Of a DNA stretch of 64,000 bases, positions 25,466-51,603 are shown piece by piece. This stretch comes from Oscillospiraceae bacterium (lineage in GTDB: Bacteria; Bacillota; Clostridia; UBA1212; SIG427). Each line of letters starts with the position of its first letter. Position 1 is the first letter of the stretch. The DNA lies in NCBI GenBank assembly GCA_015069135.1, contig SVJE01000006.1, positions 98,753 to 162,752 on the forward strand, in the 5' to 3' direction. The translations under genes were made by a program, and so were the position numbers. The notes under the pieces were generated by a model. It ran no database searches, was not told where the DNA came from, and worked only from the letters and a program-made list of their open reading frames with translations.

Positions 25466-27080
25466 TTTTGCTGATTATAATAGAAAAGATGATTTTCCGT
25501 CAAATACTGTAAAACGTATAAAAGAAATATTAGATAAAAAGAATATAAGTACAGTGATAACAAATTTACTTTCCTACGAAAAAGCTTGGTACTCGGTTCG
25601 AGTAGAACTTTTAGGAATAGATAATATAGGAGTTAACGGAAAAGGTATTACAAAGGAATACGCTTTGGCTAGTGCATATGCAGAATTAATGGAAAGGTTG
25701 CAAGCTGGATATTTAATCAAGCCTTATAATAAACAAGTAAAGCAGTTACTATATAAGCATACTTATATTGATTTTTTTTCGGGAGAAAAATTTAGGCTTG
25801 AAAATAATTTACTTGAAACTTCATGTGGTTCAAATGGACTTGCTGCTGGAAATACAAAAAAAGAAGCCATAGTACAGGCTTTGTGTGAGACTTTAGAACG
25901 TAAAGCAATAAAGGAAATATTTTTTTGTGAAAATTTTAATTGTGGACATTTTCCGATAAGTTATTTTGAAAATAATAAATGCTATATACTTTTAAAATAT
26001 ATTTTAGATAAAGGGTATAATCTCCTTGTTTTTGATTGTACATCTGGTGGCAAGATGCCCGTATTAGGGGTTATGATATGTGATGCAAATCAAAATAAAT
26101 ATATTTGTAAAATTGCCAGTGATATCAATATTGATATTTGTATTCAAAGATGTATTACTGAGATTTTTCAAGGTAAAAGATTTGATATAATTTTTAATAA
26201 CTGTCTAAAAAATAAATATGATAATAATATATTAATCTATAATAATGATTTTTATAAAAGTTATGAATATATAAGATTTGTAATTGATGGAAGTGGTTTT
26301 TTTCCTCCTAATGTATTAGAAAATATATTTAACAAGGAATCTTCGATATCTAATCTTAATGTTTTTTGTAATAAAAAACTTAATAATGCACAGGCGTTAA
26401 GTAAAATAAGCGTCATAGTTAAAAAATTTAGCAATAGACTCTTTATCAAAGATTACTCTATATTAGGTTTTCCTACGTATCGAATATATATACCAAATTT
26501 TAGTGAAGCATTTTTATTGCCAGGAGATACTCCTCAAAAATATATTGAAATAATAAAAGGTATACAAAAATGTGTATTTACAAACTCGCAGAGTGTTTCA
26601 AATTATACCGTTTCAAATTTATTAAAGTTTTTATATCAGGTAAACAATTTTCCGACTTTAATATATAATTTTGATTTAGCGAGAATATGTGGAATAGAAA
26701 TAACATTTAGTGCATTTCGTGATATTGATTTACTTATTGCTTTATGTCACTTATATTTAAATAATAGGTATGAGGCATTTGCGTATGTAAACAAATATTA
26801 TTTACATATACAACATCATCATGCACATATTTTTTTTAATTTATTACAATCCATGAAAAATAATAATTTTAATCAATATTTAGAATATATAAAGTTTAAC
26901 TGTAAAGATGAAAAAATTTTATTTTTTATAAATTATATTGAAATGATATGCAATAAAAAAATGGGTATATTTAATTGCGATATAAAAAATTGTAAAACCT
27001 GTTTTTTTGAAAAAAGATGTAATCATATAAAAGCTCAAAAAACTATCAACCAATTATTCGAAAGTACAGAGAATTATTAA
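25452..27080 (+). CDS. YcaO-like protein
   Basis: NGKGITKEYALASAYAELMERLQ and SNGLAAGNTKKEAIVQALCETLER ATP/Mg-binding motifs; GFPTYRIYIP. Confidence 0.88.
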   Translation: MKKVDFADYNRKDDFPSNTVKRIKEILDKKNISTVITNLLSYEKAWYSVRVELLGIDNIGVNGKGITKEYALASAYAELMERLQAGYLIKPYNKQVKQLLYKHTYIDFFSGEKFRLENNLLETSCGSNGLAAGNTKKEAIVQALCETLERKAIKEIFFCENFNCGHFPISYFENNKCYILLKYILDKGYNLLVFDCTSGGKMPVLGVMICDANQNKYICKIASDINIDICIQRCITEIFQGKRFDIIFNNCLKNKYDNNILIYNNDFYKSYEYIRFVIDGSGFFPPNVLENIFNKESSISNLNVFCNKKLNNAQALSKISVIVKKFSNRLFIKDYSILGFPTYRIYIPNFSEAFLLPGDTPQKYIEIIKGIQKCVFTNSQSVSNYTVSNLLKFLYQVNNFPTLIYNFDLARICGIEITFSAFRDIDLLIALCHLYLNNRYEAFAYVNKYYLHIQHHHAHIFFNLLQSMKNNNFNQYLEYIKFNCKDEKILFFINYIEMICNKKMGIFNCDIKNCKTCFFEKRCNHIKAQKTINQLFESTENY

Positions 27081-27541
27081 TGACAAATATTGAATATAAA
27101 ATATTATTAACAAAAATAAAGACTCTTGGAAGGTATCAGATATATGTATCGGGAATGAGCATGTTTCCGTGTTTGTTGCCAAATGATTTGATAACAATAG
27201 AGTCACAAGATGAATATAATATTGGAAATGTTGTTGTTTTTTTATATAAGCATGGAGAGATATTGGTCCATAGAATTGTTAAAAAAAATAATTACACTAT
27301 TTTTTGCAAAGGTGACAATTCGTTTCGATTGGAAGATATACAAGAGTCACAAATTGTTGGAAAAGTAATATCTTATTGTAGAAATGGTTTGAATTGTCTG
27401 ATTAAAGCTGCTGACGAAGAATTTATTAATATGTCATATAGAGTTGGTCAGGAGTTTAGAAAAGTTGGGTATGATAAAGAGAAACTAATGTTGACAAAAA
27501 ACTATATCAAATATTATTATAGATATATAAAAATAGATTAA
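27080..27541 (+). CDS. S24/S26-family peptidase
   Basis: SGMSMFP (Ser), LVHRIV (His) and KGDN motifs; TAATG overlap with the YcaO stop codon. Confidence 0.82.
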   Translation: MTNIEYKILLTKIKTLGRYQIYVSGMSMFPCLLPNDLITIESQDEYNIGNVVVFLYKHGEILVHRIVKKNNYTIFCKGDNSFRLEDIQESQIVGKVISYCRNGLNCLIKAADEEFINMSYRVGQEFRKVGYDKEKLMLTKNYIKYYYRYIKID

Positions 27542-31326: not shown

Positions 31327-32241
31327 ATGCTAAAACAATTGGATGATGAAATGAATCATAATTTATTCAAAAAAATTCAAGGACAGTGTTTTTTTTATAA
31401 TATTAAAAATTTGTTCTCTGTTCCATATGCTGTTATTAAAGGCGAAGCATTATCAAAACAGGCATATGGAAGTGTTGGTCAGCGAACAAGCAGTGATATT
31501 GATATTTTGGTTTCACGTAAGTATTTAAATGATATTGAGCTATCTTTACTTTCTGCTGGATTTGAAAATACTCAAAAATCACGTCAAGATAGAATTTTAA
31601 TGTTATCCAATTCGCATCAAGTTGCGCCGTGGATAAAAGTGTTTAAGCCGTGGGGTTATTTAGTAGTGGATCTGAATTTTGATATTTTCTGGGGTGAATA
31701 TGAAGGAACACGCATAAATATTGAAGAGTTTTTATCAGATACTATTGATGTGGATATTTATGAAAATACAATAAAAGCTCTTTCTCCGCCCAAGGCTATG
31801 GTGCAACTTGTTTTACATAATTACAAAGATATGAATTCCGTTTTTTTGCTTACTACACGGAATCGTTTAAAAAAGACCATGTTTGAGGATTTATATTATC
31901 TTTTAAAGAACAATTTGGATACAATTTCAATAGAAAAGCTATATACAATAAGTGAAGAATACAAAATTATTCCATATGTTTTTTATATGTTTTATTATAC
32001 CAGTAAAATATTTAATGATGATATTTTAAAAAGATATGTTGAAGCCTTTAGGACAAAAGAAGGTGATGCTTTGCTTGATTTTTATGGTTTGTGTGATAAA
32101 GAGCGTAAAGAATGGAAATGCGATTTTGAAACACGATTAAAATCAAAAAATATATTTGATTTAATAAAAAATGATTTGACGGAAAAAGACAAAGAGAAGA
32201 TTGCAATAAATAAACGTATATTTATGGGAGTAGAGGAATGA
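31327..32241 (+). CDS. Nucleotidyltransferase family protein (NTP_transf_5-like)
   Basis: YAVIKGEALSKQAYG...RTSSDIDILV motif of the nucleotidyltransferases found in Bacillota RiPP loci. Confidence 0.8.
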   Translation: MLKQLDDEMNHNLFKKIQGQCFFYNIKNLFSVPYAVIKGEALSKQAYGSVGQRTSSDIDILVSRKYLNDIELSLLSAGFENTQKSRQDRILMLSNSHQVAPWIKVFKPWGYLVVDLNFDIFWGEYEGTRINIEEFLSDTIDVDIYENTIKALSPPKAMVQLVLHNYKDMNSVFLLTTRNRLKKTMFEDLYYLLKNNLDTISIEKLYTISEEYKIIPYVFYMFYYTSKIFNDDILKRYVEAFRTKEGDALLDFYGLCDKERKEWKCDFETRLKSKNIFDLIKNDLTEKDKEKIAINKRIFMGVEE

Positions 32242-37029: not shown

Positions 37030-37726
37030 ACCTATATTTAGTGCAGAATATTTTTCTGGTAGATTAGATGCAATGTCTGACCAGGATATATTATATAAAA
37101 CAGTAGGCTGTCCTGGTTTTGTTGATGATAGTCAAATAAAACAGAAGGTACTGTCATTACCCAGTGGTAGTGCAGTAGGGTATGCTTTGAATAATGACAT
37201 ATATGATCAGTTATCTGATGAAATGACAATAGAAGCTTTTTTTTATTATAGTGATGTTCAAACAAAGATTCCTAACATGATATTTGGAAACAATTCAGAT
37301 TTAGGTGGTTTTTGCTTATATGAAACAGGTATAGGAGAGTCTTTTGGTGGTATGGTTTTTTCTGTTTGTACATGTTCTGCAAATGTATCAGCTAGAGCTC
37401 TGAAAAAAGAATGTCTTTATTTAAGAGATAAATGGCATCATGTCATTGGTGTGTTTCAAAAAGGGACAGTATCTTTATATCACAACGGTTCTCTTGAAGG
37501 AACTAGTGTAGGTAATGGTGATGTAATTGGAGAAATAATGCATCCGTCACCTCCAAATCAAATCCTTTTTGTGGGAGGTAATGTTAAAAATTCAGAATTA
37601 AATTTGGATACAGACTCTAATGTTAAGTTTGGTTTTTTTAGAATATACAACATGGCTTTTAGTAGTGAACAAGTGAAAAAGAATTATGAATTATCAAGAG
37701 CATATGAATATCAGGAGGAAACATGA
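37022..37726 (+). CDS. LamG / ConA-like jelly-roll protein
   Basis: MTIEAFF, KWHHVIGVF, SLYHNG, LFVGG and FRIYNMAFS motifs; no signal peptide seen. Confidence 0.75.
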   Translation: MNKPIFSAEYFSGRLDAMSDQDILYKTVGCPGFVDDSQIKQKVLSLPSGSAVGYALNNDIYDQLSDEMTIEAFFYYSDVQTKIPNMIFGNNSDLGGFCLYETGIGESFGGMVFSVCTCSANVSARALKKECLYLRDKWHHVIGVFQKGTVSLYHNGSLEGTSVGNGDVIGEIMHPSPPNQILFVGGNVKNSELNLDTDSNVKFGFFRIYNMAFSSEQVKKNYELSRAYEYQEET

Positions 37727-38679
37727 TATTAAAAAATTTTAAGCCATATAATCATCTGGATTATTTTGACTGCTATTATAAAGCAATGTTCCATATAATG
37801 GATTATTTTGGTATAGACGTATATAGATTTTTGCTTAATCAGCTTTATGTATATAAATATTGTGATGAAGGAAAGTATAGCTTTTCTCTATTTCAATATA
37901 GTTTACAGCAAGATACCTTGGAGTATACTGGGCTAGTCAGAGAGAAAGTGCTAATAAATGATAATCCTATTTTGCAGATAAATCAAAAAATTGAATCCAG
38001 TAAGCCTGTTATGTTTTTAATGGATTGTTTTTATATACCTTTTCGAATTGATACATACAATAGCGTGCATACAAGTCATTTTATTTGTATTTATGGTTTC
38101 AATAATAAACGGAATATTTTTAATATTATTGATCATGACTATGTGAACAGCTTTGCCTATAGAGAACACGAACTTAGTTATGATGCTTTACTTGATTATA
38201 TAAATGCCTACAAGAAAAATAATTTATACTTTTATGCATTTTCAAAAGATGAATCTATAGACCAATCGGATAAATCATATATACAGGAATATTCAAATGT
38301 TGTATTAAGAAATAAGAATTTGTTGAATGATGGTATCAGGCGATTATATGATTTTATAGATTTTTTTACAAGTGAACTTCAAAGCAGTACGGCAAACGAA
38401 TTTGTAGAAAAAATAATGATTGTAATTGTAAATATAACAAGATCAGTTAAGCAAAGGGAAGATTTGCTGAAGGCGTATATATTGGATTCACAATTAATTA
38501 TGTTTCTAGAAGCTATATCTCAAAAGTGGACTGTTATTCGCTCCTTGTTATTTAAATTTGTACGATATGAGCAAGATAAAAAATTGTCTCTAATTCCAAA
38601 TGTTTGTAATTATATTAAAGAGGTGTTTGAAATGGAAAGCGAATTTAATAAAAAACTAATTAATTATTGCAAAGGATAA
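37723..38679 (+). CDS. BtrH-N / C39-like protein
   Basis: FDCYYKA (Cys), KPVMFLMDCFYIPF, HTSHFICIYG (His), IIDHDYVN (Asp). Confidence 0.72.
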   Translation: MILKNFKPYNHLDYFDCYYKAMFHIMDYFGIDVYRFLLNQLYVYKYCDEGKYSFSLFQYSLQQDTLEYTGLVREKVLINDNPILQINQKIESSKPVMFLMDCFYIPFRIDTYNSVHTSHFICIYGFNNKRNIFNIIDHDYVNSFAYREHELSYDALLDYINAYKKNNLYFYAFSKDESIDQSDKSYIQEYSNVVLRNKNLLNDGIRRLYDFIDFFTSELQSSTANEFVEKIMIVIVNITRSVKQREDLLKAYILDSQLIMFLEAISQKWTVIRSLLFKFVRYEQDKKLSLIPNVCNYIKEVFEMESEFNKKLINYCKG

Positions 38680-38687
38680 TATAAGAT

Positions 38688-40478
38688 ATGAAAGAAATTA
38701 TAAATGTTATCAAAATTAATTTTAAAGGTCTAAAACATATTTGGGATATAAACAAAGGTTATGTAATATTATCTTTTATATGGCCTATTATCTTTATGCC
38801 AATACAGCTATTTGAAGTATATGTTATAAAATATGTTACAGACGGTCTTGTGTATGGCACTCCTTTTGCTACACTGTTGTTTATAATAATATCCCTGGGT
38901 TTACTTAAATTATTGCGCAATTTTATAGGAAATTTCTATAATAAAAGATACCAAGTTATAAAGAACGAAGAGATTGAGCAAAAATTGCGCCTTAATTTTT
39001 TAAAAAAAGTATCATCTCTTGATATAGAATGTTTTGATAATGCGGAGTTCTACGATAAATATGTTAAGGCTTTACAGGAAGCTGACTCTAGATATTTTCA
39101 GGTTTTGGGACATTTGAGTAACTTTTTATATAGTTTAATAACTTTATGTGCTTATTTTTCTTTAATTATTAGTTTAGATGGTTTTTTAATAGTATTTGCC
39201 GTGCTTCCCGTATTAGTAACACTAATTTTTTCTGGAAAACAAAACAAGATGAGTTTTAATTTTGGTGAAGAGACTGTTCCTATTGGCAGGAAAGTTAATT
39301 ACATTATGAGAATTTTTTATCTTAGTAATTATGCAAAGGAAATTAAGTTAAATAGAGCAGGCGGCTTTTTTATTGATAAACTTAAGAAATACTATAATGA
39401 ATATAATGTAAAATTAAAAAAGTTTGGAATTGATGAATTGAAAATTACGCTACTAGAGCACGGATTATCAATTGTAATACCAGTATTACTTCAAATATAT
39501 CTAGTAGCTAAGACTGCCTTTGGTTTATTGTCCGTAGGTAGCTATGCAGCATTAGAGTCAACTACTTGGCAGGTGTCCGGCTATTTGCAGTCAGTAATAC
39601 AAATCATTCCACAGCTAAAGCAAAACAGCAGGTTTCTTAAAAATCTGGATGAAATATTGGAGTATGAGCCTAAAATTAAAGATAAAGTAGAACCAAAGGT
39701 ATTGGATAAAAAAATCTTACATGAAATATCTGTTAAAAATCTAACTTTTACATATCCTAATAATGAGCAGCCTACATTGCATAACATTTCAATGAAAATA
39801 AAGCCTGGAGAAAAGATTGCCATAGTAGGATATAACGGGGCTGGCAAGTCCACATTTATTAAGCTATTAATGAGACTATATGATACAAGTATAGGCTCTG
39901 TCAAAATAGATGGTGTAGATATAAAAGACTATAGTCAGGATTCCTTGCGTGATAATTTTGGTGTAGCTTTTCAGGATTTTCAGTATTATGCGTATAATTT
40001 AGCAGAAAATATTTTGTTTAAAGAATCTGATAAAATGACCAATGCGGAAGAAACAAAAATGAATCAGGCTGTGGAATATGCCGGTCTGAAGGATAAAATA
40101 GATACATTTAATGCTGGTATATATACAATGCTTACTAAAGAATTTGATAGTGAAGGAGCGATTCTTTCCGGTGGTGAGACTCAAAAATTAGCACTGGCCA
40201 GAGCGTTTGTGAAAGATTGTAGCATTCTAATTTTAGACGAACCAACCAGTGCCATGGATCCAATTGCCGAAGATAAGCTATATAAAAATATGTTTAAAAT
40301 AGCAGAGGGTAAGACCCTTATATTTATATCACATAAACTGTCTTCTGCTAAAATGGCTGACCGGGTATTCTTGTTTGAAAACGGTAGAATTATAGAATCA
40401 GGTAGTCATGAAGAACTTATGGAATTAAACGGGAAATATGCTGAAATGTTCAATACTCAATCAAGCTATTATTCATAA
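38688..40478 (+). CDS. ABC exporter, fused TMD-NBD (copy 2)
   Basis: GYNGAGKST, LSGGETQK, ILDEPT; 596 aa like copy 1. Confidence 0.93.
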   Translation: MKEIINVIKINFKGLKHIWDINKGYVILSFIWPIIFMPIQLFEVYVIKYVTDGLVYGTPFATLLFIIISLGLLKLLRNFIGNFYNKRYQVIKNEEIEQKLRLNFLKKVSSLDIECFDNAEFYDKYVKALQEADSRYFQVLGHLSNFLYSLITLCAYFSLIISLDGFLIVFAVLPVLVTLIFSGKQNKMSFNFGEETVPIGRKVNYIMRIFYLSNYAKEIKLNRAGGFFIDKLKKYYNEYNVKLKKFGIDELKITLLEHGLSIVIPVLLQIYLVAKTAFGLLSVGSYAALESTTWQVSGYLQSVIQIIPQLKQNSRFLKNLDEILEYEPKIKDKVEPKVLDKKILHEISVKNLTFTYPNNEQPTLHNISMKIKPGEKIAIVGYNGAGKSTFIKLLMRLYDTSIGSVKIDGVDIKDYSQDSLRDNFGVAFQDFQYYAYNLAENILFKESDKMTNAEETKMNQAVEYAGLKDKIDTFNAGIYTMLTKEFDSEGAILSGGETQKLALARAFVKDCSILILDEPTSAMDPIAEDKLYKNMFKIAEGKTLIFISHKLSSAKMADRVFLFENGRIIESGSHEELMELNGKYAEMFNTQSSYYS

Positions 40479-40496
40479 AAAGGAACGGTGATTATT

Positions 40497-41654
40497 ATGA
40501 AAAACTATTATTTTACTTCAGAATCTGTTACTGAAGGACATCCGGACAAGATTTGTGACCAGATTTCAGATGGAATATTAGATGCTATTCTAGCACGGGA
40601 TCCTAATGCTCATGTGGCATGTGAGGTTGCAATCACTACAGGCATGGTATTAATTATGGGAGAGATTTCTTCTGATTACAATGTTGATATGCCTAAAATT
40701 GCTCGTGATGTAATTAGTGATATTGGTTATAATGATTCAAAGTTTGGCTTTGATTCAAAATCATGTGCTGTAATTACAGCCGTAGATAAACAGTCTGCTG
40801 ATATTGCCATGGGAGTAAATAAATCAACAACGGAAGAAATGGGAGCCGGTGATCAAGGAATGGTATTTGGCTATGCCTGTGATGAGACGCCTGAATATAT
40901 GCCTTTGGCTATTTCTTTGGCACATAAATTATCTCAGCGTTTATCATATGTAAGGCGGCAAGATATTATCAAAGGTCTTGGCCCGGACGGCAAATCACAA
41001 GTGACTGTGGAATATGAAAATGATATTCCTAAAAGAATTGATACAATTATTATTTCTGCTCAACATAGTGAAGCTTTAGAGCTAACTGAATTAAGAGACT
41101 CAATTATAGAACATGTTATTTCCTGCGTAGTACCGGAAAGCTTAATAGATAAAGATACAAAGATTTTTGTAAACCCTACAGGACGTTTTGTTATAGGCGG
41201 ACCTAAGGGTGATAGTGGCTTAACCGGAAGAAAAATTATTGTAGACACATATGGTGGTTATGGACGACATGGTGGTGGAGCATTTTCTGGTAAAGATCCT
41301 TCAAAAGTAGACAGAAGCGGAGCCTATATGGCCAGATATATTGCTAAAAATATTGTATCAGCTAAACTGGCAAAAAAATGTGAAGTGCAAATTTCATATG
41401 GAATTGGACTAGCTGAACCTGTATCTGTTATGGTTAATACTTTTGGAACTGGTAAATATTCTGATGAAGATATTGAAAAAGCTGTAAGATGTGTTTTTGA
41501 TATGAGACCAGGAAAAATAGTAGAGTATTTGGACTTGAGAAAGCCTATATACGAAGAGTTAGCAGTATTTGGCCATATGGGAAGAGAAGATTTGAATTTA
41601 AAGTGGGAAGAAACCGATAGAGTTAAGGAGCTAAATGCTTTTTTTGTTAGATAA
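40497..41654 (+). CDS. metK: S-adenosylmethionine synthetase (cluster-embedded copy)
   Basis: [40 protein letters not shown] and [15 protein letters not shown] motifs. Confidence 0.97.
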
Positions 41655-41671: not shown

Positions 41672-42244
41672 ATGAGTTGGTATGTGGTATTTGTAAAAAC
41701 TGGACAAGAGAATAAAGCAGTAATGGATTTACGTTCAAAAGTGGACGAAGAGACAACGTTTCCTTTTGTGCCCATGAAAGAACTTCTTTTTAAAAAAAGA
41801 GGAGAAGTAAGAAAAGAAAAAGAAGTGCTTTTTCCTGGTTACATATTTGTGGAAACTGAAGAAACCAATGAAGCTTGTCCAATAAATTTATTTGATGCTG
41901 TAGTAAAGAGCCGACATTGTCATAGGATATTAAATTATGGTTCTTATGAAAATTCAGCTATGAACGAAATAGAGCAGGATTTATTGTGCTCCTTAATGGA
42001 TGAAGATGGGTTAATTGAATCAAGTGATGCTTTATTAGTAGGTGATAGAGTTATGGTGATTTCAGGGGCATTAAAGGGGTATGAAAACAGGATAGTATCT
42101 TATGACAGACATAAAAGAACAGCTGTTATAGAAGTAACTATGATGAATAAAAGCATACCTGTAACAGTTGCACTTAATACTCTTATTAAATTACCTGACG
42201 ACAAAAATAAATGCAGAAATGAGGATACTTATGAATTCATATGA
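41672..42244 (+). CDS. loaP: NusG-paralog antiterminator, LoaP-like
   Basis: WYVVFVKTGQE, FVP...KK.G...LFPGYIFVE (NGN domain) and a KOW domain GDRVMVISGALKG; embedded in a biosynthetic cluster. Confidence 0.75.
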   Translation: MSWYVVFVKTGQENKAVMDLRSKVDEETTFPFVPMKELLFKKRGEVRKEKEVLFPGYIFVETEETNEACPINLFDAVVKSRHCHRILNYGSYENSAMNEIEQDLLCSLMDEDGLIESSDALLVGDRVMVISGALKGYENRIVSYDRHKRTAVIEVTMMNKSIPVTVALNTLIKLPDDKNKCRNEDTYEFI

Positions 42245-43163
42245 AAAATATAATTTAAACAAATACAATGGACTTAACAATTGCTTTTTTTCCTCAGCTA
42301 TAACAATATGTGATTATTTTGGTGTGGATGAATGTAAGAAAGGTATAGCTTTGTTGTATCCATATTCTATAGGTAATACAACACCAATTCAGTTATCTGT
42401 AGAGAATAATGGTGAAAATATATCAGAATTACTTAATTTATCATGTGTAAACTATCTGACACGAAATTGCCAAACAAATTTGATTGGGACAATAATTAAT
42501 GATCTTGATGAGAAGAAGCCAGTTATGCTGTATATTGATTGTTTCTATGATTCTATGAGTAAGTTCTCCTTTGGAAGATTTCATTTAAGGCATTATATTA
42601 TTGTTTGTGACTACATAGTTGAAGAAAATAGTTTTTGGATTGTGCAACATGATTATGCAAATGAAAATACATATACGTATAGAAAAATTAGTTTTAAAGA
42701 GCTGGAAAATTGCTATTATGGTGGATTAAAACATTTTAAACAAAAGAAATCTACATATTTTTGGTTTTACAAATCTAATGACAAAGATTTACATACAAAA
42801 AGTATCTCAAATAACAGTCTTTTATATGAATACAAACATTCTACGGATGTTCTAGAACAGTTTTTACAGTTCTTTTTTGTATGTGTAAAGGAAAACGTGT
42901 CTGATGTATATCTTGCCCCCTTTGTAAAGAATTTTAATGAAATTTTGCAGGTGAAGAAAACCCTTGCTACGTTTTATATAAATGAAGTTGGAGAAAGCGA
43001 TAATTTAACTCAAGCTGTATCTAAAATTGCTTATGCATGGGAGCAGCTTTATCAGATCGTAAAGAATGAGTCAAGAACAATTAATGATATAAGCAAAAGT
43101 ATTTCAGACATAATAGGTTGTGAAAGTGGATTATGTATAAAACTTGGAAAATTATTTGAGTGA
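42231..43163 (+). CDS. BtrH-N / C39-like protein
   Basis: NNCFFSS (Cys), KPVMLYIDCFY, FHLRHYIIVCDY (His), IVQHDYANENTY (Asp); start moved to ATG 42231 behind gagga. Confidence 0.7.
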   Translation: MNSYEKYNLNKYNGLNNCFFSSAITICDYFGVDECKKGIALLYPYSIGNTTPIQLSVENNGENISELLNLSCVNYLTRNCQTNLIGTIINDLDEKKPVMLYIDCFYDSMSKFSFGRFHLRHYIIVCDYIVEENSFWIVQHDYANENTYTYRKISFKELENCYYGGLKHFKQKKSTYFWFYKSNDKDLHTKSISNNSLLYEYKHSTDVLEQFLQFFFVCVKENVSDVYLAPFVKNFNEILQVKKTLATFYINEVGESDNLTQAVSKIAYAWEQLYQIVKNESRTINDISKSISDIIGCESGLCIKLGKLFE

Positions 43164-43988: not shown

Positions 43989-44921
43989 ATGTACCAGGAA
44001 TTGCAGATTGAAGACTTTATTGATGAAGAAATTAGTATAGATGTACAAAAATTTCTAGGTGAAAATGATATAAGTGAATATTTCAATAAAGAACAATTTC
44101 ATTTAGTTTTTTTGTCAAAAGGTAAATTAAGTGGAAATATAGATAATCGAAAATACAATTTGTATTCTCCTTTAATAATTTGTCTTAGTGATAGAAATGT
44201 AGTTGAAAAGTTTGTATGTGATCGATGGTCTGAAGTTTATATAATTTCTTTTAATCCAATCGTACTTAATCAAAATTTAAATATAGAACATATTTACTAT
44301 AAGACCTATACACAACTATCTGAAAAACATTACTTAAAACAATTAGAGCCTTTTATGGAAAAAGAGGTTTCTCGTAAATGTTTTTCAATTAACCAACAAT
44401 CAGCACAGTCATATCTAAATAGGATTTTGAAACTTGAAAAATATTTAACAGAGAAAAAAGATTCTTTCTGGTACTTTCGTGCAAGAAGTGAATTAGTAGT
44501 GTTGTTATATTTTATTGAAAATATAATGCTTAATTATATGTCAAAAAAACAAAAGGATATTATACCTACAGAATTTGCAAATATTATTAAATATATAGAT
44601 GAACATATATCTGAAACAATTACATTGAAATTTTTATATGATAATTTCTATATTAATGCAAATAAAGTAGAGGAACTATTCAATATACATTACGGAACAA
44701 CCTTTAGAAAGTATATAAGGGAAAAAAGACTGGAAATTGCAAAGGATAAGCTTCGATTTACAAGTTTATCTAATAAAAGTATTGCAAGCCTAATAGGTCT
44801 TTCAACTTCACAAAACTTCTGTAAATTTTTTAAAAGCATGACAGGTACATCACCTGAGGTTTTCAGAAAAGAGCAGGTGGCTGAAAGAAGTGAAGAGCCA
44901 AGGTTAAAGAAACCTGTGTAA
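43989..44921 (+). CDS. AraC-family regulator (paralog 4)
   Basis: Double HTH, GLSTSQNFCKFFKSMTGTSPEVFRKEQ; alignable with paralogs 1 and 2. Confidence 0.88.
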   Translation: MYQELQIEDFIDEEISIDVQKFLGENDISEYFNKEQFHLVFLSKGKLSGNIDNRKYNLYSPLIICLSDRNVVEKFVCDRWSEVYIISFNPIVLNQNLNIEHIYYKTYTQLSEKHYLKQLEPFMEKEVSRKCFSINQQSAQSYLNRILKLEKYLTEKKDSFWYFRARSELVVLLYFIENIMLNYMSKKQKDIIPTEFANIIKYIDEHISETITLKFLYDNFYINANKVEELFNIHYGTTFRKYIREKRLEIAKDKLRFTSLSNKSIASLIGLSTSQNFCKFFKSMTGTSPEVFRKEQVAERSEEPRLKKPV

Positions 44922-45093: not shown

Positions 45094-46455
45094 ATGTCTA
45101 GAGTGGCTATAATTGGCGAAAATTCAATTGAATACATTGAAAAACTTCTTGAAATTTGGAACGCAGGTGATTGTGCGGTTCTAATTGACAGAAAGACTCC
45201 TTTAGGAACAGCGCATGAAATGATAATGGAAGCAGCTGTGCATAAGTGTTATATAGAAGAACATATATTTAAAAAATGTGAAAACTATTTACCGACAAAT
45301 ATTGAGCTTTCACCATTCAAGTGTACAACACATTCTGCTACAGTTTTAAAAAAAGAAATATATGAAAAGTATAGAGATAATTACAGTAGTAATGAGGCTC
45401 TCGTAATATATAGTTCAGGGACAACCGGTAAATCTAAAGGCATTATTCTTTCTCATTATGCAATCAGTACAAATGCAAATGCGATTATTGACTATATGAA
45501 ACCAAATTGTAATGATTGTATATATATTGTGAAATCGTTGACACATTCATCGACATTAATTGGGGAATTATTAGTAGGCCTTAAATCTAACGCAAAATTA
45601 ATTGTGGCTCCAACAATTGTTCCTCCAAGACACATTGTTGGTAATGTTAAAGAAAAAAAGGCTACCATACTTTGTCTTAATCCTATGCTTCTTTCATTAA
45701 TAAGTGAATATGTTATACAAAATAAATGCCAGTTCTCATTTCTGAAAAAAATTTATGTTAGTGGATCTATTTTGAGTGATAAAACATATGAACGTGCTCA
45801 CTATGCATTCAAAAATATACCTATATATAATGCATATGGTTTATCGGAAGCAGGACCGCGAGTGGCAGTGCAACGGGATGATTGCTGCAAGAATAATTCA
45901 GTAGGTAAGCCAATAAAAGGAGTAGAATTAATACTTGTTGATAAGCAAGGTAGTCCAGTAAAAAAAGGTAGTTGTGGAATCATTCATATAAATACCAAGA
46001 GTCAATTTCTAGGTTATATATCCGGAAATGAAAAACACAAATCATTATATCATGGATGGTTAAATTCAGGAGATGTCGGATATATCGATGAACGAGATGA
46101 GTTACATATTGTAGATAGAGTTGATGATGTCATAGTAATTAATTCACATAAAATATATCCGAGTGATATTGAAAATCAAATTTTGGCTAATCTTCCGTTT
46201 AATGATTGCGCTGTTGTTCCATTCAAAAACGGAAATAGGTGTTATATCGGCTGTTTGTATACGACGAATATTGAAGTTAAAGATATTCGTCGACAGCTTA
46301 TGAACGTTTTGCTCCCTTATGAGATACCTGAAGTTTTTTTCAGAAGTGATTTCATGCCACGAACAATAAATGGAAAAATTTCAAAGAATAATATACAAAA
46401 AATATTGCAAAAAGAAGTGAGAGGAAGAATTAAAGATGGAAATTACAAGCGTTAA
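45094..46455 (+). CDS. Adenylate-forming ligase 2
   Basis: YSSGTTGKSK, YGLSEAGP, SGDVGY, DRVDDVI and NGKI motifs. Confidence 0.9.
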   Translation: MSRVAIIGENSIEYIEKLLEIWNAGDCAVLIDRKTPLGTAHEMIMEAAVHKCYIEEHIFKKCENYLPTNIELSPFKCTTHSATVLKKEIYEKYRDNYSSNEALVIYSSGTTGKSKGIILSHYAISTNANAIIDYMKPNCNDCIYIVKSLTHSSTLIGELLVGLKSNAKLIVAPTIVPPRHIVGNVKEKKATILCLNPMLLSLISEYVIQNKCQFSFLKKIYVSGSILSDKTYERAHYAFKNIPIYNAYGLSEAGPRVAVQRDDCCKNNSVGKPIKGVELILVDKQGSPVKKGSCGIIHINTKSQFLGYISGNEKHKSLYHGWLNSGDVGYIDERDELHIVDRVDDVIVINSHKIYPSDIENQILANLPFNDCAVVPFKNGNRCYIGCLYTTNIEVKDIRRQLMNVLLPYEIPEVFFRSDFMPRTINGKISKNNIQKILQKEVRGRIKDGNYKR

Positions 46456-46732
46456 ATTAGAGTTAATGGTCATACTAATGAGACTTTTTTCTTGCAAAGG
46501 TTTTAATGAAAGTCATTTCGAGTATATGAACTTAATAGAGGATATGGGAATGGATTCTATTAATTTTATTACCCTTATAGTTGAAATTGAAAAAAGATTT
46601 AATATCATAATTCCAGATGATACATTACTTATGGAGAATTTCAAAAGTATAAATGATATTATTTTAATAGTGGAACAACAGATTAATTGTAAATCTAAAA
46701 TTGAAGAGAGGAAAATTAATGCTAAAACTTGA
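46436..46732 (+). CDS. Acyl carrier protein 4
   Basis: MGMDSINFITLIVEIEKRFNI. Confidence 0.85.
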   Translation: MEITSVKLELMVILMRLFSCKGFNESHFEYMNLIEDMGMDSINFITLIVEIEKRFNIIIPDDTLLMENFKSINDIILIVEQQINCKSKIEERKINAKT

Positions 46733-47951
46733 ACACATATTAAAATACATTTCGGAAAACAATGAGTTTTATAAAAATGTTATTAAGAAGTATGAAATAT
46801 CTAATAGCATGGATATATTACAATATCCAATGCTTACAAGAAAGCAACTTCAAGAGCATCGATATAATATGTTTTCAGAAGGATATAAAACTAAATATTT
46901 TTATCAACAACTTAAACGTCAGTCTTCTTCTGGATCATCAGGTGTTCCAGTAAATGTATATTGGGATTATAAAGATTGGTATGCATCAAATCTATCACTG
47001 TGGCGCAAAAGATATCAATGGTATCAGATTTTACCAAGTGATAACTTGATAAAGTTTGAGTTAAATATATTTGATGACAAGGTGAATGGCAGTGATATTT
47101 ATTTTATTCAAAATCCTGAAAACATACTTACTATCAATGTCTCATTACTTTGTTCAGATGAAGCATATTTAAAAGTTGTTGAAGCTATAAACCAGTTTAA
47201 ACCTGTTTGGTTATATGTTCAACCATTTGTACTAAATAAGCTGATTAATATTATTGAAAAATATAATGTAAAAAAACCGGAAAGCTTGAAGCATATTGAG
47301 TTTGTCGGGGAGATATTATCCTCAGATTTAAGAAGAAGAACTGTTGATTTTTTTGGAGTAACTATATCAAATTTATATGGGTCGGAAGAAATGAATGGAA
47401 TTGCATATGAGTGCCCTTGTCATAATATGCACATTCTGGAAGACAATGTTTATGCTGAAGTTTTAAACAAAAATGGATTTGAAATTAGTGGCAGAGGAGA
47501 AGCTGTGATTTCAAATTTAAACAATTATTGTATGCCACTTATTCGATACAATTTGGAAGATCAAATTATTTTAAATGAACATCAAACTTGTGCCTGTGGC
47601 TGTAGCTCTGCAATTATTGATGTAATTATTGGAAGAAGTCGTGAAAGTGTTCTTACAGATAAGGGAGTTGAAATAAATTCGTTTATGTTGGCGGAAGTGA
47701 TTTCTGAAGTAAATAATCAATTTAATGATATTATTAGAGAGTATAGATATACTTTTTTTAAGGCAAAACAGATATTATTATGTGAAATAAGACTTGAATA
47801 TGGGAAAAGTCATTGGTTTTGTAATGTGAAAAGATGTATAAACAATATTTTTATAATAAAATTAGGGAATAATTATATAACTGAAATAGAGGTAAAACTA
47901 GTCGATGCTATTTATAAGAATAAGAAAAGAAAGATTTTGAATATTGTTTGA
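46719..47951 (+). CDS. Phenylacetate-CoA-ligase (PaaK/CapK)-like adenylating enzyme
   Basis: SSSGSSGVP, LYGSEE..IAYECP, MPLIRYNLED and IIGRS motifs. Confidence 0.82.
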   Translation: MLKLEHILKYISENNEFYKNVIKKYEISNSMDILQYPMLTRKQLQEHRYNMFSEGYKTKYFYQQLKRQSSSGSSGVPVNVYWDYKDWYASNLSLWRKRYQWYQILPSDNLIKFELNIFDDKVNGSDIYFIQNPENILTINVSLLCSDEAYLKVVEAINQFKPVWLYVQPFVLNKLINIIEKYNVKKPESLKHIEFVGEILSSDLRRRTVDFFGVTISNLYGSEEMNGIAYECPCHNMHILEDNVYAEVLNKNGFEISGRGEAVISNLNNYCMPLIRYNLEDQIILNEHQTCACGCSSAIIDVIIGRSRESVLTDKGVEINSFMLAEVISEVNNQFNDIIREYRYTFFKAKQILLCEIRLEYGKSHWFCNVKRCINNIFIIKLGNNYITEIEVKLVDAIYKNKKRKILNIV

Positions 47952-47972: not shown

Positions 47973-49352
47973 ATGAAAGAAATACCAATGGATTGTCCTG
48001 TGTTTAAAATATTTTACTATAAAGACAATTATTTTTTATATGATACTTATACAAATAGTATATTTAAAATATTGAAATCACATTTTGAAGAATTATATTT
48101 ATTGCAAAATATAGGGATTTCTAATTATGTTAATCTTAATAAATCTACCAAGGAATATAATGATGTTTTACATTTAATTAACAAAGGAATGTTGAAATTT
48201 GGGTTTATTAAAAAAGTAGAACATCCTGAAACATGTAATATAAAATTCCTTCTTGACAGATGTGTAAATGATATTACTTTGCAAGTTACACGTGATTGCA
48301 ATTTTAAATGTCGATACTGTTTGTATGCAAATGATAGTAAAACAGAGAGAAATCATGAAGATATTAATATGTGTTGGGAAACAGCAAAAAAAACTATAGA
48401 TTTTTTGTATCAACATTCTATAGATGTTGATACTGTTAATATTTCTTTTTATGGTGGGGAACCGTTGCTCAACTTTGATTTGATTGTTAAAACAGTCAAT
48501 TATGCTAGTGAAAAATTACAGACTAAAAAAGTGCATTATAATATGACAATTAACGGTTCATTGTTAACGGACAATATTATTAATTTTTTAATATTGCACA
48601 ATTTTGATATTTCAATTAGCCTTGATGGACCCCAAAAAATACAAAATAATCATCGCAAGTTTCTTAGAACGGGTGGTGATACATATGATACGGTAATAAA
48701 AAAAATAAATAGTATAAGACGGTTAAGCGAATCATATTTTATGCAACATGTTTATTTTTTGCCAGTTTATTTAAATGATGAAAATTATCAAGAAGTATAT
48801 GACTTTTTTGAAAAGATTGGAGTAATGAAGGATAAAGTTACACCAATTAAAGCAAATTTAGGAGGCATGGATTATATCCTTAGTGAGTGGAAAATTCATA
48901 ATTTAAATAAAAAAAAGAATGGATTAATTAAGGGTTATACAGAAAATGAGATTTCTAAGATCAATAAGATAATAAATAATAAAAATTTACTTCCTCCGTG
49001 CTGGCATCATAACGGGCAATGTATCCCGGGTGTACAGCGTGTTTTTATAGATGTCTATGGAATTATGTACCCTTGTGAAAAAATCACAGAAAACAAGTCA
49101 TTTTCAATTGGCAATATACAAGAAGGTTTTGATGTTGAACGAATTATAAAGTTTCTTAATGTTGGCAAATTGACAGCAACTGAATGTAAAAAATGTTGGG
49201 CAATGAGATTTTGTGAAGGGTGTATATCTTTATGTAATGATATAGATTTATGTGATATAACACGAGATCGAAAACTGGTCTCGTGTGAAAAACAGAAAGA
49301 AAAAGCTCTATATGATATTAAATCCTTTATTGATAGAACTAGTAAGCTTTGA
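47973..49352 (+). CDS. Radical SAM/SPASM maturase, CcpM-like, with N-terminal RRE-like region
   Basis: TLQVTRDCNFKCRYC, FYGGEPLLN, CIPGVQRVFID..G..YPCEK and CKKCWAMRFCEGC resemble clostridial Cys-rich peptide maturases (recalled as TIGR04068; needs an HMM check). Confidence 0.8.
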   Translation: MKEIPMDCPVFKIFYYKDNYFLYDTYTNSIFKILKSHFEELYLLQNIGISNYVNLNKSTKEYNDVLHLINKGMLKFGFIKKVEHPETCNIKFLLDRCVNDITLQVTRDCNFKCRYCLYANDSKTERNHEDINMCWETAKKTIDFLYQHSIDVDTVNISFYGGEPLLNFDLIVKTVNYASEKLQTKKVHYNMTINGSLLTDNIINFLILHNFDISISLDGPQKIQNNHRKFLRTGGDTYDTVIKKINSIRRLSESYFMQHVYFLPVYLNDENYQEVYDFFEKIGVMKDKVTPIKANLGGMDYILSEWKIHNLNKKKNGLIKGYTENEISKINKIINNKNLLPPCWHHNGQCIPGVQRVFIDVYGIMYPCEKITENKSFSIGNIQEGFDVERIIKFLNVGKLTATECKKCWAMRFCEGCISLCNDIDLCDITRDRKLVSCEKQKEKALYDIKSFIDRTSKL

Positions 49353-49362
49353 GGTAATTAAT

Positions 49363-50289
49363 ATGTGTAAAATATTTTTATGTACAGATTCCTACGCATT
49401 AAGAACATTACATTGTTCTCTTGATTATGTTTTAAATGTAAAAGTTAAAGAAATAATTGTTTTAAAGGAAAATTATAAAAAAGATGAGGTGTGCAAAAGG
49501 CGTTCGGATATTAAAATTACTGTATATGACACGATATATGAATGTATCTTAAATAGCGAATGGACAATTATTGTTTCTAACTCAAATATACCAGCAAAAA
49601 CAATTGATTATATTAAACAGGTATCTCATAATATGAAAAAAGGATACTATTTTATTGAGAATCCTTGGAACTTGGAAAGTGAACTCAATGATAGACTTAT
49701 TTTTTCAATTAAAGGCTCAGAAGTTAGCACTTTGCCAATTATAGCTCAAGTATCTTTAGGAATTTTATCGCAACCTTATTTTACGGAAATTGCTTTAAAC
49801 AAAAAGTTTAGCAAAGAAAATATTAAAGTTCGACAAATTTTTACCGACGAAACTAATAGATTGTTAAATGAATTAAATAAATGTGAACTGTTAAATGGCT
49901 CGTTGTCGAATCAAATTGATAATCGTGTGAAGAATTTTGATATTTTATGCTACTCTATAAATGTTGGAAATGATATATATAGCATTAAGAATTATATTCA
50001 TTTATTCTCAAATTTAAAACCTGATTATTTAATTTTACAAACAGATTTTCGTTTTAATAATTATGATTTAGCAAACCAAATTGTAAAATACTGGTGTTTT
50101 TCTGATTTGGATATAATACTTAAGTCGCATTATACATTGTCAGACCAAAAATATAAGCTATATTGTGATGAGCAGTTATCTTTGAAAGAAAATGTATTAG
50201 ATATAGAATCAGCAGAAGTAGAAGAAAATCTGTTTCGTTCTATTTTTAATAAACTGTCTCTACCAAAGGGGATTTTTAGAATAAGCTAG
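49363..50289 (+). CDS. Peptide maturation system protein, TIGR04066-like (tentative)
   Basis: Follows the CcpM-like gene; LPII...G...EIAL...F..ENIKVRQI pattern; gaggt RBS before ATG 49363. Confidence 0.45.
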   Translation: MCKIFLCTDSYALRTLHCSLDYVLNVKVKEIIVLKENYKKDEVCKRRSDIKITVYDTIYECILNSEWTIIVSNSNIPAKTIDYIKQVSHNMKKGYYFIENPWNLESELNDRLIFSIKGSEVSTLPIIAQVSLGILSQPYFTEIALNKKFSKENIKVRQIFTDETNRLLNELNKCELLNGSLSNQIDNRVKNFDILCYSINVGNDIYSIKNYIHLFSNLKPDYLILQTDFRFNNYDLANQIVKYWCFSDLDIILKSHYTLSDQKYKLYCDEQLSLKENVLDIESAEVEENLFRSIFNKLSLPKGIFRIS

Positions 50290-50318
50290 AAATGTTAAAT
50301 TACTAGTAATAATTATCG

Positions 50319-50588
50319 GTAGTTAGAAAGTGCTGATGTAAAAGAGAAAAAACTAGGGAGGTGAAATAATGATATTTGAAAAAACAACGAGTTTTTCGGG
50401 TGCAACGCCTTTAGCAAAATGTTCTGGTTGCAGTAACAGTGGCGAGCAAGTATTTCAAACAAATTTATCAGGGTTTTTGGCACATAATGCTGGTAGATGT
50501 ACAACAAAAGGTTAATTTTATTTAAATTTATTTACTTATAATGATGTTTTAAGGAAGGATTCCTTTTACATTAGCACTTTCTAACTAC
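50319..50588. repeat. 26-bp inverted repeat pair enclosing a small ORF
   Basis: GTAGTTAGAAAGTGCTGATGTAAAAG (50319-50344) versus CTTTTACATTAGCACTTTCTAACTAC (50563-50588): 25/26 complementary, and the one mismatch is a G-U pair in RNA. Confidence 0.9.
50369..50515 (+). CDS. RiPP precursor peptide candidate 2 (48 aa, absent from the ORF track)
   Basis: GGGAGGTG RBS 7 nt before ATG; MIFEKTTSFSGATPLAKCSGCSNSGEQVFQTNLSGFLAHNAGRCTTKG; directly downstream of the CcpM-like module. Confidence 0.75.
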   Translation: MIFEKTTSFSGATPLAKCSGCSNSGEQVFQTNLSGFLAHNAGRCTTKG

Positions 50589-50793
50589 TGAATAATTAAA
50601 TGTGAAATATTGCACAAAATTATTATTGCTATATAAATATATTAAGTTACACATATTTTATGATGAGATAAATTTTTTCTTTAATCTTGCTTTTTAACTA
50701 TAAATTGATATATTCTGACTTGATTTTATGTAAAAATTGTTGTAATGTGTGAAGTGTTGATTAATAAGTAAAAGCTTTCTGGAGGGATATTAT

Positions 50794-51603
50794 ATGAAAA
50801 AAATACCGTTTGTGCATTTTATGGATTATTTATTCAAATATGATAAATCCATTCCGGGTGAAGTGTTACTCGATAATTACTGTGTATATAAAGAAAACTA
50901 TTTATCAGGGAAATCAAGTTCTGACTTTTATTATAAATCAGGCTTTGTAATTGACTTTTCCACATATATAAACAATGATGAATGTACAGTGTTCTGCTTT
51001 TTGCATCAGATTAATGATTTATGCGATATTGAAAGTGTACTTAATTCAGTGCGAGTATTAATTGATGAACAACAAAAAGTTTTTAGGGTGTCATATGAAA
51101 TATTTGCTTCTGTAAAAATGTCCATCGCTGAAAAATTTGTCGACAGTATCGAGATGTACAGATTCAAGCGTTATGGTATAAGTTATCGTTCTAGTTTCAA
51201 TATTCAAAAAATTAGCAATGAAGATATTGGTACAGTAAAGAGTGTGATTGCAGAAAAAATTGAAAATGATTCTCATTTTGGAAGAGTGATAGCAAAAGGA
51301 TTTATGGATTTTTGTTGTGACGATATTAACAAATTGATAGGGTGTTTTGAAGAAGATAAACTTTGTGGAATAGCCTCATATGCATTTTTTGAGGAAGCTG
51401 ATATGGCTGAATTATCAAGTATATATGTATTGCCTGAGTTTCGAAATATTGGTGTTGGAAAAGAATTAGTACTATCTGCTTTAAATGAATATCCTAATAA
51501 ACAATGGATATACCAGGCCGGAGCAAAAAATGAGATGTCAATTAGACTTGCCCAATCTACGGGGTTTAAGCTTTCCGGAGCGGCCTTATATATTCGTGTA
51601 TAA
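50794..51603 (+). CDS. GNAT-family N-acetyltransferase
   Basis: LSSIYVLPEFRNIGVGKELV (motif A) and NEMSIRLAQSTGF. Confidence 0.82.
   Translation: MKKIPFVHFMDYLFKYDKSIPGEVLLDNYCVYKENYLSGKSSSDFYYKSGFVIDFSTYINNDECTVFCFLHQINDLCDIESVLNSVRVLIDEQQKVFRVSYEIFASVKMSIAEKFVDSIEMYRFKRYGISYRSSFNIQKISNEDIGTVKSVIAEKIENDSHFGRVIAKGFMDFCCDDINKLIGCFEEDKLCGIASYAFFEEADMAELSSIYVLPEFRNIGVGKELVLSALNEYPNKQWIYQAGAKNEMSIRLAQSTGFKLSGAALYIRV

Follow-up and report, generated by a model that had tools for sequence, protein, structure and literature searches.

A probable precursor peptide gene bracketed by a conserved inverted repeat in a divergent relative of the CcpM peptide maturation system

This study analyzed a 64,000-nucleotide (nt) stretch of DNA from an Oscillospiraceae bacterium (GenBank assembly GCA_015069135.1, contig SVJE01000006.1, positions 98,753 to 162,752 of the forward strand), with the focus on a short open reading frame (ORF) at 50369-50515. 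The whole stretch is referred to as the window, and coordinates are those of the window unless another locus is named. The ORF follows a run of genes that encode an AMP-ligase, an acyl carrier protein (ACP), a PaaK-like enzyme, a radical S-adenosylmethionine (rSAM)/SPASM enzyme, and an accessory protein. Our results indicate that the ORF is very probably a real and conserved precursor gene of this cassette and that it is bracketed by a conserved helix. The cassette has seven conserved parts, namely the AMP-ligase, the ACP, the PaaK-like enzyme, the rSAM/SPASM enzyme, the TIGR04066-like accessory protein, the precursor, and an ATP-binding cassette (ABC) exporter. It constitutes a divergent sister branch of the CcpM systems and is not a member of them by any curated cutoff; a separate precursor family and an additional pair of ligase and PaaK-like genes distinguish the branch.

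The precursor ORF in the window

An earlier note on this DNA, made from the letters of the sequence, had proposed a short ORF with a strong ribosome-binding site (RBS) at this position. The ORF proved to be real. The RBS GGGAGGTG (50356-50363, + strand, as read from the sequence) lies 5 nt ahead of the ATG, and the frame (50369-50515, + strand, ATG to TAA) translates to the 48-amino-acid (aa) peptide MIFEKTTSFSGATPLAKCSGCSNSGEQVFQTNLSGFLAHNAGRCTTKG. The peptide carries the leader motif MIFEK and cysteines at positions 18, 21, and 44, which form a CxxC pair (C18-x2-C21) and a distal Cys. The annotated gene order agreed with the proposed location directly behind the ligase-ACP-PaaK-like-rSAM-accessory run, and the antisense frame mentioned in the same proposal was present as a mechanical ORF of 64 aa (50313-50507) that overlaps the precursor ORF.

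The identical 48-aa product is called as a gene on 23-24 assembled contigs of a public collection, all from one strain, and seven metagenome contigs of the same strain were 100% identical over the 551 nt around the ORF. The peptide is hydrophilic and is encoded in a single copy in its own 1.9-Mb genome. No other small ORF of the precursor type was found in the window or in the genome, and the search of three other genomes of the family returned only a chance match to the peptide (E 0.03).

Equivalent small ORFs in orthologous loci

In a word-indexed search of 5.8 billion proteins, the peptide and the accessory protein each matched only themselves, and synteny was therefore used to find homologues of the peptide. 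(The TIGR04066-like protein of locus L027, a bridging locus described below, likewise found only itself.) A sequence search of the PDB produced no meaningful match. An exhaustive profile-free search with the rSAM protein yielded a distinct clade of representatives with approximately 38-49% identity. Loci were collected from contigs encoding these relatives (L020), from a genome collection (L023 and L024), and from a metagenome scan with the PaaK-like protein (L103-L137). A scan of genome contigs with the rSAM alignment relied on generic patterns, and most of its hits were unrelated SPASM enzymes; the only clade members among its results were L023, L024, and L025, and L027 emerged as a bridge to CcpM. 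The same cassette of ligase, ACP, PaaK-like, rSAM, and accessory genes, the last encoding approximately 300 aa, was present in approximately 25 other genome and metagenome loci. The system is rare: the clade is carried by only two or three of the genome collection's species representatives, and of 400 genomes of the class that were scored, the window's own was the only one with the accessory family.

Small ORFs were counted in the 18 nonredundant loci in which the DNA continues past the accessory gene. All 18 contained an ORF of 43-68 aa with a GGAGG-type RBS, located 40-80 nt downstream of the accessory gene; examples are the peptides of L023 (MTFEKRNTFDESTISRAGCGSCGGCSGDAGASANQAAFGAQQSTQRQNKGC), L114 (MIFEKTNINISTTTPAYVNCKCSTSTDSTLNFSTSHGHCSSKS), and L120 (MIFEKVNSSRTNGARNWTPCVNCGYKNDNPPSAEYQQRSSATASEKNEANNGKSCVS). 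The absence of an equivalent peptide near orthologous rSAM genes, which the earlier note had named as the result that would count against its proposal, was thus not observed. The N-terminus of the peptides followed the pattern M-x-F/L-x-K across the 18 loci. The first cluster of cysteines, either CxC or CxxC and in some peptides longer, began at residues 16-26, and in 11 of the 18 peptides, the last Cys was 0-4 residues from the C-terminus. Outside the N-terminal pentapeptide and the Cys positions, the peptides were hypervariable, with a mean column identity of 27%.

The combination of a conserved N-terminus, conserved cysteines, and a variable remainder is the leader/core pattern of a precursor of a peptide that is ribosomally synthesized and then modified post-translationally (RiPP). 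This family fits the general description of such a precursor, in which a small gene next to the modifying enzyme encodes a leader motif that is conserved and a core that varies and bears the Cys residues. Three cysteines were the commonest pattern in the clade, and the earlier remark that three are few for a CcpM-type precursor was correct. When the 18 peptides were compared with all NCBIfam models at E <= 10, no match was obtained except one chance Zn-ribbon at 0.081.

ABC transporter genes with 26-33% identity (tblastn) to the exporter of the window (38688-40478, + strand; PF00005), which is the probable export partner, were located downstream of the peptide in most loci that reach far enough. 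In these other loci, the exporter directly follows the peptide, usually within 300-600 nt; in the window, it lies upstream of the cassette.

A conserved stem brackets the precursor ORF

The precursor ORF of the window lies between the arms of an inverted repeat of 29 nt with 93% complementarity (50316-50344 and 50563-50591). RNA folding extended the stem to approximately 50310-50348 and 50560-50598 (+ strand), with a helix of 29-35 bp, a minimum free energy (MFE) of -81.7 kcal/mol, and a z score of -5.4. The left (5') arm runs from 21 nt past the accessory stop codon to 20 nt before the ATG and leaves the RBS free, and the right (3') arm begins 45 nt past the peptide stop codon; the enclosed segment corresponds exactly to the RBS and the precursor ORF. 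Both mismatches between the arms of the window are G.U pairs on the sense-strand RNA.

Equivalent stems with unrelated sequences and the same geometry bracketed the orthologous ORFs, including 30 nt at 93% in L020, 19 nt at 95% in L023, and 27-29 contiguous bp in L103, L107, and L125. In the loci with a clear stem (n = 16), the left arm started 0 to approximately 28 nt past the accessory stop codon and ended 17-38 nt before the ATG, the right arm started 15-101 nt after the peptide stop codon, and the total span was 231-335 nt. Helix length measured on duplexes with bulges was dropped because of its high background in AT-rich DNA, and the longest contiguous helix was used together with three kinds of controls. 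The longest exact inverted match between native arms was 15-29 nt in 11 of the 18 loci. By comparison, arms paired across different loci gave a mean of 7.5 and a 99th percentile of 11, brackets placed around the ACP gene gave a mean of 7.1, and 1190 brackets that were slid along the same loci at unchanged geometry gave a mean of 7.0 and a maximum of 13, with none reaching 15 or more. The MFE folds of the regions (approximately 390-465 nt) contained at least 10 bracket pairs in 16 of the 18 loci. A long, near-perfect double-stranded RNA (dsRNA) that flanks a segment and is conserved as structure and not as sequence is what is expected of an RNase III-type stem, and the genome encodes RNase III (242.7 bits).

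Taken together, the observations on the stem make the sense transcript the most likely place for the pairing to act. When G.U pairs on the sense RNA were allowed, the helix became longer in 11 loci (for example, from 16 to 29 in the window, from 7 to 20 in L124, and from 9 to 16 in L104); when those on the antisense RNA were allowed, it became longer in only two loci, by one pair. The isolated mismatches within the stems comprised seven sense G.U pairs, one A.C pair, and two transversions. Between the close relatives L024 and L112, one arm pair, read by eye, had changed on both sides from A-U to G-C.

Two other identities of the repeat were considered and rejected. A miniature inverted-repeat transposable element or other dispersed repeat was rejected because the 1.9-Mb genome contains the arms at no other place. 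The reading as an intrinsic terminator was likewise rejected, since no terminator-like site could be detected and a U-run follows the right arm in L023 only. No Rfam family matched the stem region.

Two of the related loci have additional features. L020 contains an IS110-family element between its PaaK-like and rSAM genes (L020 3284-4122) and an IS21-type element after its precursor gene (L020 7360-9386), and its precursor ORF and bracket stem are intact. L025 (4254-4483) holds a more distant cassette, with an rSAM protein of 33% identity, in which an MxFxK-type peptide beginning with MSFVKNVVVPYGHSGCGSCGSSSCSSNCSGK is enclosed by a weaker bracket helix of 14 bp.

The cassette is a sister branch of the CcpM systems

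The first cassette gene encodes an AMP-binding (ANL) ligase (45094-46455, + strand; PF00501, E 5.7e-39), the same-position orthologues of which were 39-60% identical in approximately 25 loci. It is followed by the ACP gene (46436-46732, + strand; PF00550, E 3.9e-9), which is kept in the orthologous loci; its product is a standard carrier of the PF00550 type that contains the DS serine in the motif DMGMDSINF. The third gene (46719-47951, + strand) encodes a PaaK/F390-synthetase-like adenylate-forming enzyme with weak matches to the FlxY, DVU_1553, PaaK, BagE/FevW, and DdaG models. This enzyme was the best-conserved protein of the cassette, with 43-56% identity over its full length and an invariant SSGSSG.PVNVYWDY block.

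The fourth gene encodes the CcpM-like rSAM/SPASM peptide maturase (47973-49352, + strand). Its best model by a wide margin was TIGR04068 (CcpM), at a score of 360.5 bits that was spread over two stretches and lay below the cutoff of 500. The next models were RumMC (186.5 bits, cutoff 720) and PapB (185.4 bits, cutoff 340), followed by the lachnocin rSAM enzyme, QhpD, the nif11-like peptide maturase, and the SCIFF maturase. PF04055 and PF13353 scored above threshold, and the SPASM domain PF13186 was weak and below threshold (17.9 vs. 21.5 bits). The cysteines of the CxxxCxxC motif (C109, C113, and C116) and seven SPASM cysteines for auxiliary clusters (C350, C368, C405, C408, C414, C417, and C438) were invariant in 16 orthologues, as befits an rSAM/SPASM maturase.

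The accessory gene directly behind it (49363-50289, + strand; real start at the ATG at 49363) encodes 308 aa. The protein gave no match to Pfam or NCBIfam, including the TIGR04066 hidden Markov model (HMM), even at E <= 10; its L020 orthologue was 35% identical (E 4e-53). When 17 accessory orthologues were aligned with four TIGR04066-like proteins by using hhalign, the probability was 96% (E 3.7e-9, 262 columns). This probability identifies the accessory protein, at the level of profile alignment, as remotely homologous to the TIGR04066 "peptide maturation system protein" and not as a member of the curated model. The alignment was significant only with the four-sequence TIGR04066-like set, and the comparison with the single L027 protein was insignificant. 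The AlphaFold (AF2) model of the accessory protein comprised two alpha/beta domains (pLDDT 85, pTM 0.87). Its best full-length fold match was the DUF1611 structure 2obn (TM 0.45), followed by the DUF1611-family N-acetyltransferase DgcN, Mur ligases, and signal recognition particle GTPases.

The earlier note had placed the rSAM gene in a CcpM-like module and had suggested that the rSAM and accessory proteins be checked against the corresponding HMMs. The likeness was borne out by TIGR04068 as the best rSAM model and by the remote TIGR04066 homology; membership was not, in that the rSAM score fell short of its cutoff, the ACP reached 32.9 bits with TIGR04069 against a cutoff of 70, and the TIGR04066 model itself found nothing. 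Locus L027, from a Lachnospiraceae metagenome-assembled genome, bridges the two architectures: it contains a ligase, an ACP, a PaaK-like enzyme, an rSAM protein with 457.8 bits to TIGR04068, a TIGR04066-like protein (90.4 bits), a TIGR04069-like protein, a Cys-rich ORF, and an ABC gene.

The CcpM system, which is defined bioinformatically in Clostridia and Paenibacillus, combines a TIGR04068 rSAM enzyme, a TIGR04066 protein, the ACP-related TIGR04069 protein, and a Cys-rich peptide. Published descriptions of canonical clusters list an rSAM enzyme, TIGR04066 and TIGR04069 proteins, a subtilase, and an ABC transporter (PMC4573289, PMC10731318, PMC9062424), and in one case, no recognisable structural gene accompanied the cluster (PMC4573289). 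The cassette described here shares with these systems the rSAM/SPASM enzyme, directly followed here by a remote TIGR04066 homologue, as well as the presence in one operon of genes for a carrier, for a short peptide with Cys, and for an ABC exporter. It differs in the added pair of AMP-ligase and PaaK-like enzyme, in the lack of a subtilase, and in the scores of its proteins (rSAM 360 vs. 500 bits, ACP 33 vs. 70 bits, and no HMM match for the accessory protein). The precursors differ as well. The CcpM-proper-like loci L027 (10907-11131) and L026 (10978-11151) encode Cys-rich small ORFs with an MKK-type leader and 6-7 Cys, whereas the cassette peptides carry the MxFxK leader and typically three Cys. 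No bracketing inverted repeat was found in L026 or L027, in contrast to the stem around the cassette precursor ORF.

Discussion

The precursor-peptide reading of the ORF at 50369-50515 is well supported, and two other explanations of the ORF were weighed against it. One holds that the frame stays open by chance in an AT-rich spacer, as its short length and the overlapping 64-aa antisense ORF might suggest; the strong RBS at ideal spacing speaks against chance, and the intact frame, RBS, and motifs in 18 of 18 diverged loci refute it, which leaves this explanation with practically no probability. The other is that the small protein is conserved but has an immunity, regulatory, or chaperone-like role, with the true substrate of the maturase encoded elsewhere. 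The small number of cysteines for a CcpM-type system and the lack of a match to known precursor families would fit such a role. However, the hydrophilic character of the peptide speaks against a membrane immunity protein, neither the window nor the genome holds another candidate small ORF of this type, the equivalent position in the related L027 locus is occupied by a Cys-rich small ORF, and a pentapeptide and Cys positions that are kept while the rest varies is what a RiPP leader and core would show. We consider a nonsubstrate role quite improbable.

The bracket stem also admits more than one function. In the reading that we prefer, it would be an RNase III-type processing site that frees a mini-mRNA of approximately 280 nt, its ends paired and its RBS unobstructed, from the polycistronic transcript, and the stabilised mini-mRNA would let the precursor far outnumber the enzymes. 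RiPP systems normally need their precursor in excess over the enzymes. Such a stabilising clamp is a credible role for the stem, held here with slightly less than even confidence. An alternative is that the repeat is an invertible DNA switch (inverton) that flips the RBS and ORF and makes the precursor phase variable. Inverted repeats of 15-35 bp around a segment of approximately 220-270 bp are typical inverton geometry, and DNA-level processes could also make arms coevolve within a locus and differ between loci. Nevertheless, the assembled sequence of 24 strain contigs and 18 orthologous loci showed the operon orientation only, neither the annotated genes between 21 and 52 kb nor the conserved cassette included a recombinase, and the arms share no recognition motif across loci. 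The mismatches are mostly sense-strand G.U pairs, and the stems of L024, L104, and L124 are long only when such pairs are counted; an inverton is very improbable. The stem could instead be an RNA element with a different task, such as an RNase III site that limits or destroys the message, an element that uncouples the exporter, or one that controls translation of the ORF. Long, perfect dsRNA is an RNase III substrate whatever the outcome, and the enzyme is present; an ABC gene lies within 300-600 nt in most loci, and the stretch from the RBS to the ATG is partly paired in some predicted folds. Against this stand the position of the RBS outside the arms in every locus, the end of the left arm 17-38 nt ahead of the ATG in the clear-stem loci, the U-run after the right arm in a single locus, which excludes a general terminator, and the usual demand for excess precursor. 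These other RNA roles are, taken together, unlikely, and the stabilising clamp remains our preferred function for the stem.

Family knowledge suggests how the cassette may act on the peptide. The N-terminal MxFxK motif may serve as the leader element that is bound by the N-terminal domain of the maturase, approximately 100 residues ahead of CxxxCxxC, and the rSAM/SPASM enzyme may convert Cys thiols into thioether bridges. The nearest rSAM models with known chemistry (RumMC, PapB, QhpD, and the SCIFF maturase CteB) all belong to thioether-forming enzymes, and because of this, we regard thioether cross-linking by the cassette enzyme as somewhat favoured. An Asp or Glu was present within six residues after the first Cys cluster in 11 of the 18 peptides, compared with 7.3 expected (p ~0.05), which is a weak hint of ranthipeptide- or QhpD-like links from Cys to Asp/Glu. 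More speculatively, the AMP-ligase might load an acid onto the ACP, the PaaK-like enzyme, which resembles the amide- or ester-forming BagE/FevW and DdaG, might extend or ligate the carrier-bound unit, and the DUF1611-like accessory protein might transfer the acyl unit to the peptide or scaffold the complex. Carrier-dependent acylation of the peptide is doubtful on present indications. The full picture, in which a dedicated stem module, co-opted from RNase III processing of the kind seen in rRNA, would excise and protect an approximately 280-nt precursor mini-mRNA and set the ratio of precursor to enzyme post-transcriptionally, and in which the product would be of a new kind, a thioether peptide that is also acylated from the carrier by a DUF1611-like transferase, is tentative, and we consider it less likely than not.

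Several observations weigh against parts of this interpretation. The seven compared contigs of the strain are identical here and offer no variation from which dN/dS, selection on the ORF within the species, or changes of orientation could be gauged. The stems of L118 and L120 are weak, and L108 has a perfect 15-bp inverted match in a region with an MFE fold that contains no bracket pairs. The excess of sense G.U pairs is small, with p 0.035 under a 50:50 expectation and approximately 0.09 by a hand estimate that allows for the G/T-rich + strand. The models of the thioether-forming relatives all scored below their cutoffs, with family resemblance as the whole basis of the thioether proposal, and the acidic-residue signal is marginal. 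The fold match of the accessory protein is modest at a TM of 0.45 and comes with no conserved Walker A motif, and the roles given to the ligase, ACP, PaaK-like enzyme, and accessory protein are guesses.

The maturases of sactipeptides and ranthipeptides (RumMC, PapB, and CteB), as well as QhpD, resemble the cassette enzyme in the rSAM/SPASM architecture, the N-terminal leader-binding region, and the adjacent Cys-bearing precursors. The acidic residue that often follows the Cys cluster recalls the Cys-X-Asp/Glu motifs of ranthipeptides, with the marginal statistics already given (11 of 18). The scores of the cassette enzyme with these families are far below the cutoffs (186 vs. 720 for RumMC and 185 vs. 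340 for PapB), and these systems are not known to have a ligase/ACP/PaaK-like trio or a TIGR04066-like partner.

The stem has parallels in other RNAs. RNase III stems bracket the 16S and 23S rRNAs, and type I toxin mRNAs such as hok contain long-distance pairing between the 5' and 3' ends. As in these RNAs, the flanks of the cassette segment pair over 15-35 bp and loop out a whole segment, and the structure is kept while the sequence is not. By contrast, what is looped out in the cassette is the mRNA of a RiPP precursor, positioned within a biosynthetic operon or at its end; its RBS is free and not sequestered, and its cleavage is only predicted. Hairpins or leaky terminators follow RiPP precursor genes such as lanA, sboA, and skfA, and the presumed purpose is the same, namely more precursor mRNA relative to enzyme mRNA. 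Those elements are local and lie downstream of a promoter-proximal precursor, whereas the arms in the cassette are approximately 215-320 nt apart, enclose the RBS and ORF, and are distal to the enzyme genes. Literature searches for a precursor-bracketing stem in RiPP operons turned up no precedent.

CcpM-type clusters are annotated in many gut Firmicutes, with little experimental study and no clear substrates. For the sister clade, a precursor family, a conserved core of seven genes, and a minimal candidate substrate with three Cys are now available, which makes direct reconstitution feasible. The TIGR04066-type protein and the carrier and ligase genes are thereby tied to a specific probable peptide substrate for study. 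If the proposed function of the stem is true, the processing clamp would be a means of controlling the ratio of precursor to enzyme for which no precedent was found in RiPP operons, and the bracket stem could be used as a genome-mining signature for hidden precursor genes.

Genomic surroundings of the cassette

An AraC-type regulator gene (43989-44921, + strand) heads the same-strand gene run before the cassette. Behind the precursor ORF lies the gene for a GNAT acetyltransferase with a long N-terminal extension (50794-51603), followed by a convergent aldose epimerase gene. Among the loci compared, a GNAT gene follows the precursor in the genome of the window only, and it could encode a strain-specific tailoring or self-protection enzyme.

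The G+C content rises from 25-31% to 38-41% at approximately 52 kb, which places the precursor ORF near the end of a low-GC island. The island (25-31%) spans 28000-52000 of the window and was probably acquired horizontally; housekeeping DNA that includes folC and cmk lies beyond approximately 52 kb. Within the island, beside the MetK gene (40488-41654), a NusG paralogue (41672-42244) scored 149.8 bits against a cutoff of 125 for the LoaP antiterminator, which suggests that long biosynthetic operons may be subject to processive antitermination. A paralogous pair of genes (37723-38679 and 42168-43163) gave weak BtrH_N/Peptidase_C39_2-like matches (E 7.8e-6 and 0.03), and the products could be ACP-to-amine acyltransferases or leader peptidases. 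The flanks retrieved for the other loci showed none of the window's GNAT, LoaP, BtrH-like, LamG, and MetK proteins.

A second RiPP-like set is located upstream (24416-27541). It comprises genes for an rSAM/SPASM protein (24416-25465), a YcaO protein (25452-27080), and an S24-type peptidase (27080-27541), and an unannotated ORF of 284 aa lies ahead of it. Between 28228 and 31075, two neighbouring genes encode proteins of 501 and 449 aa that consist of the MutS domain V ATPase only, and they are followed by a gene for an NTP_transf_5 nucleotidyltransferase (31327-32241).

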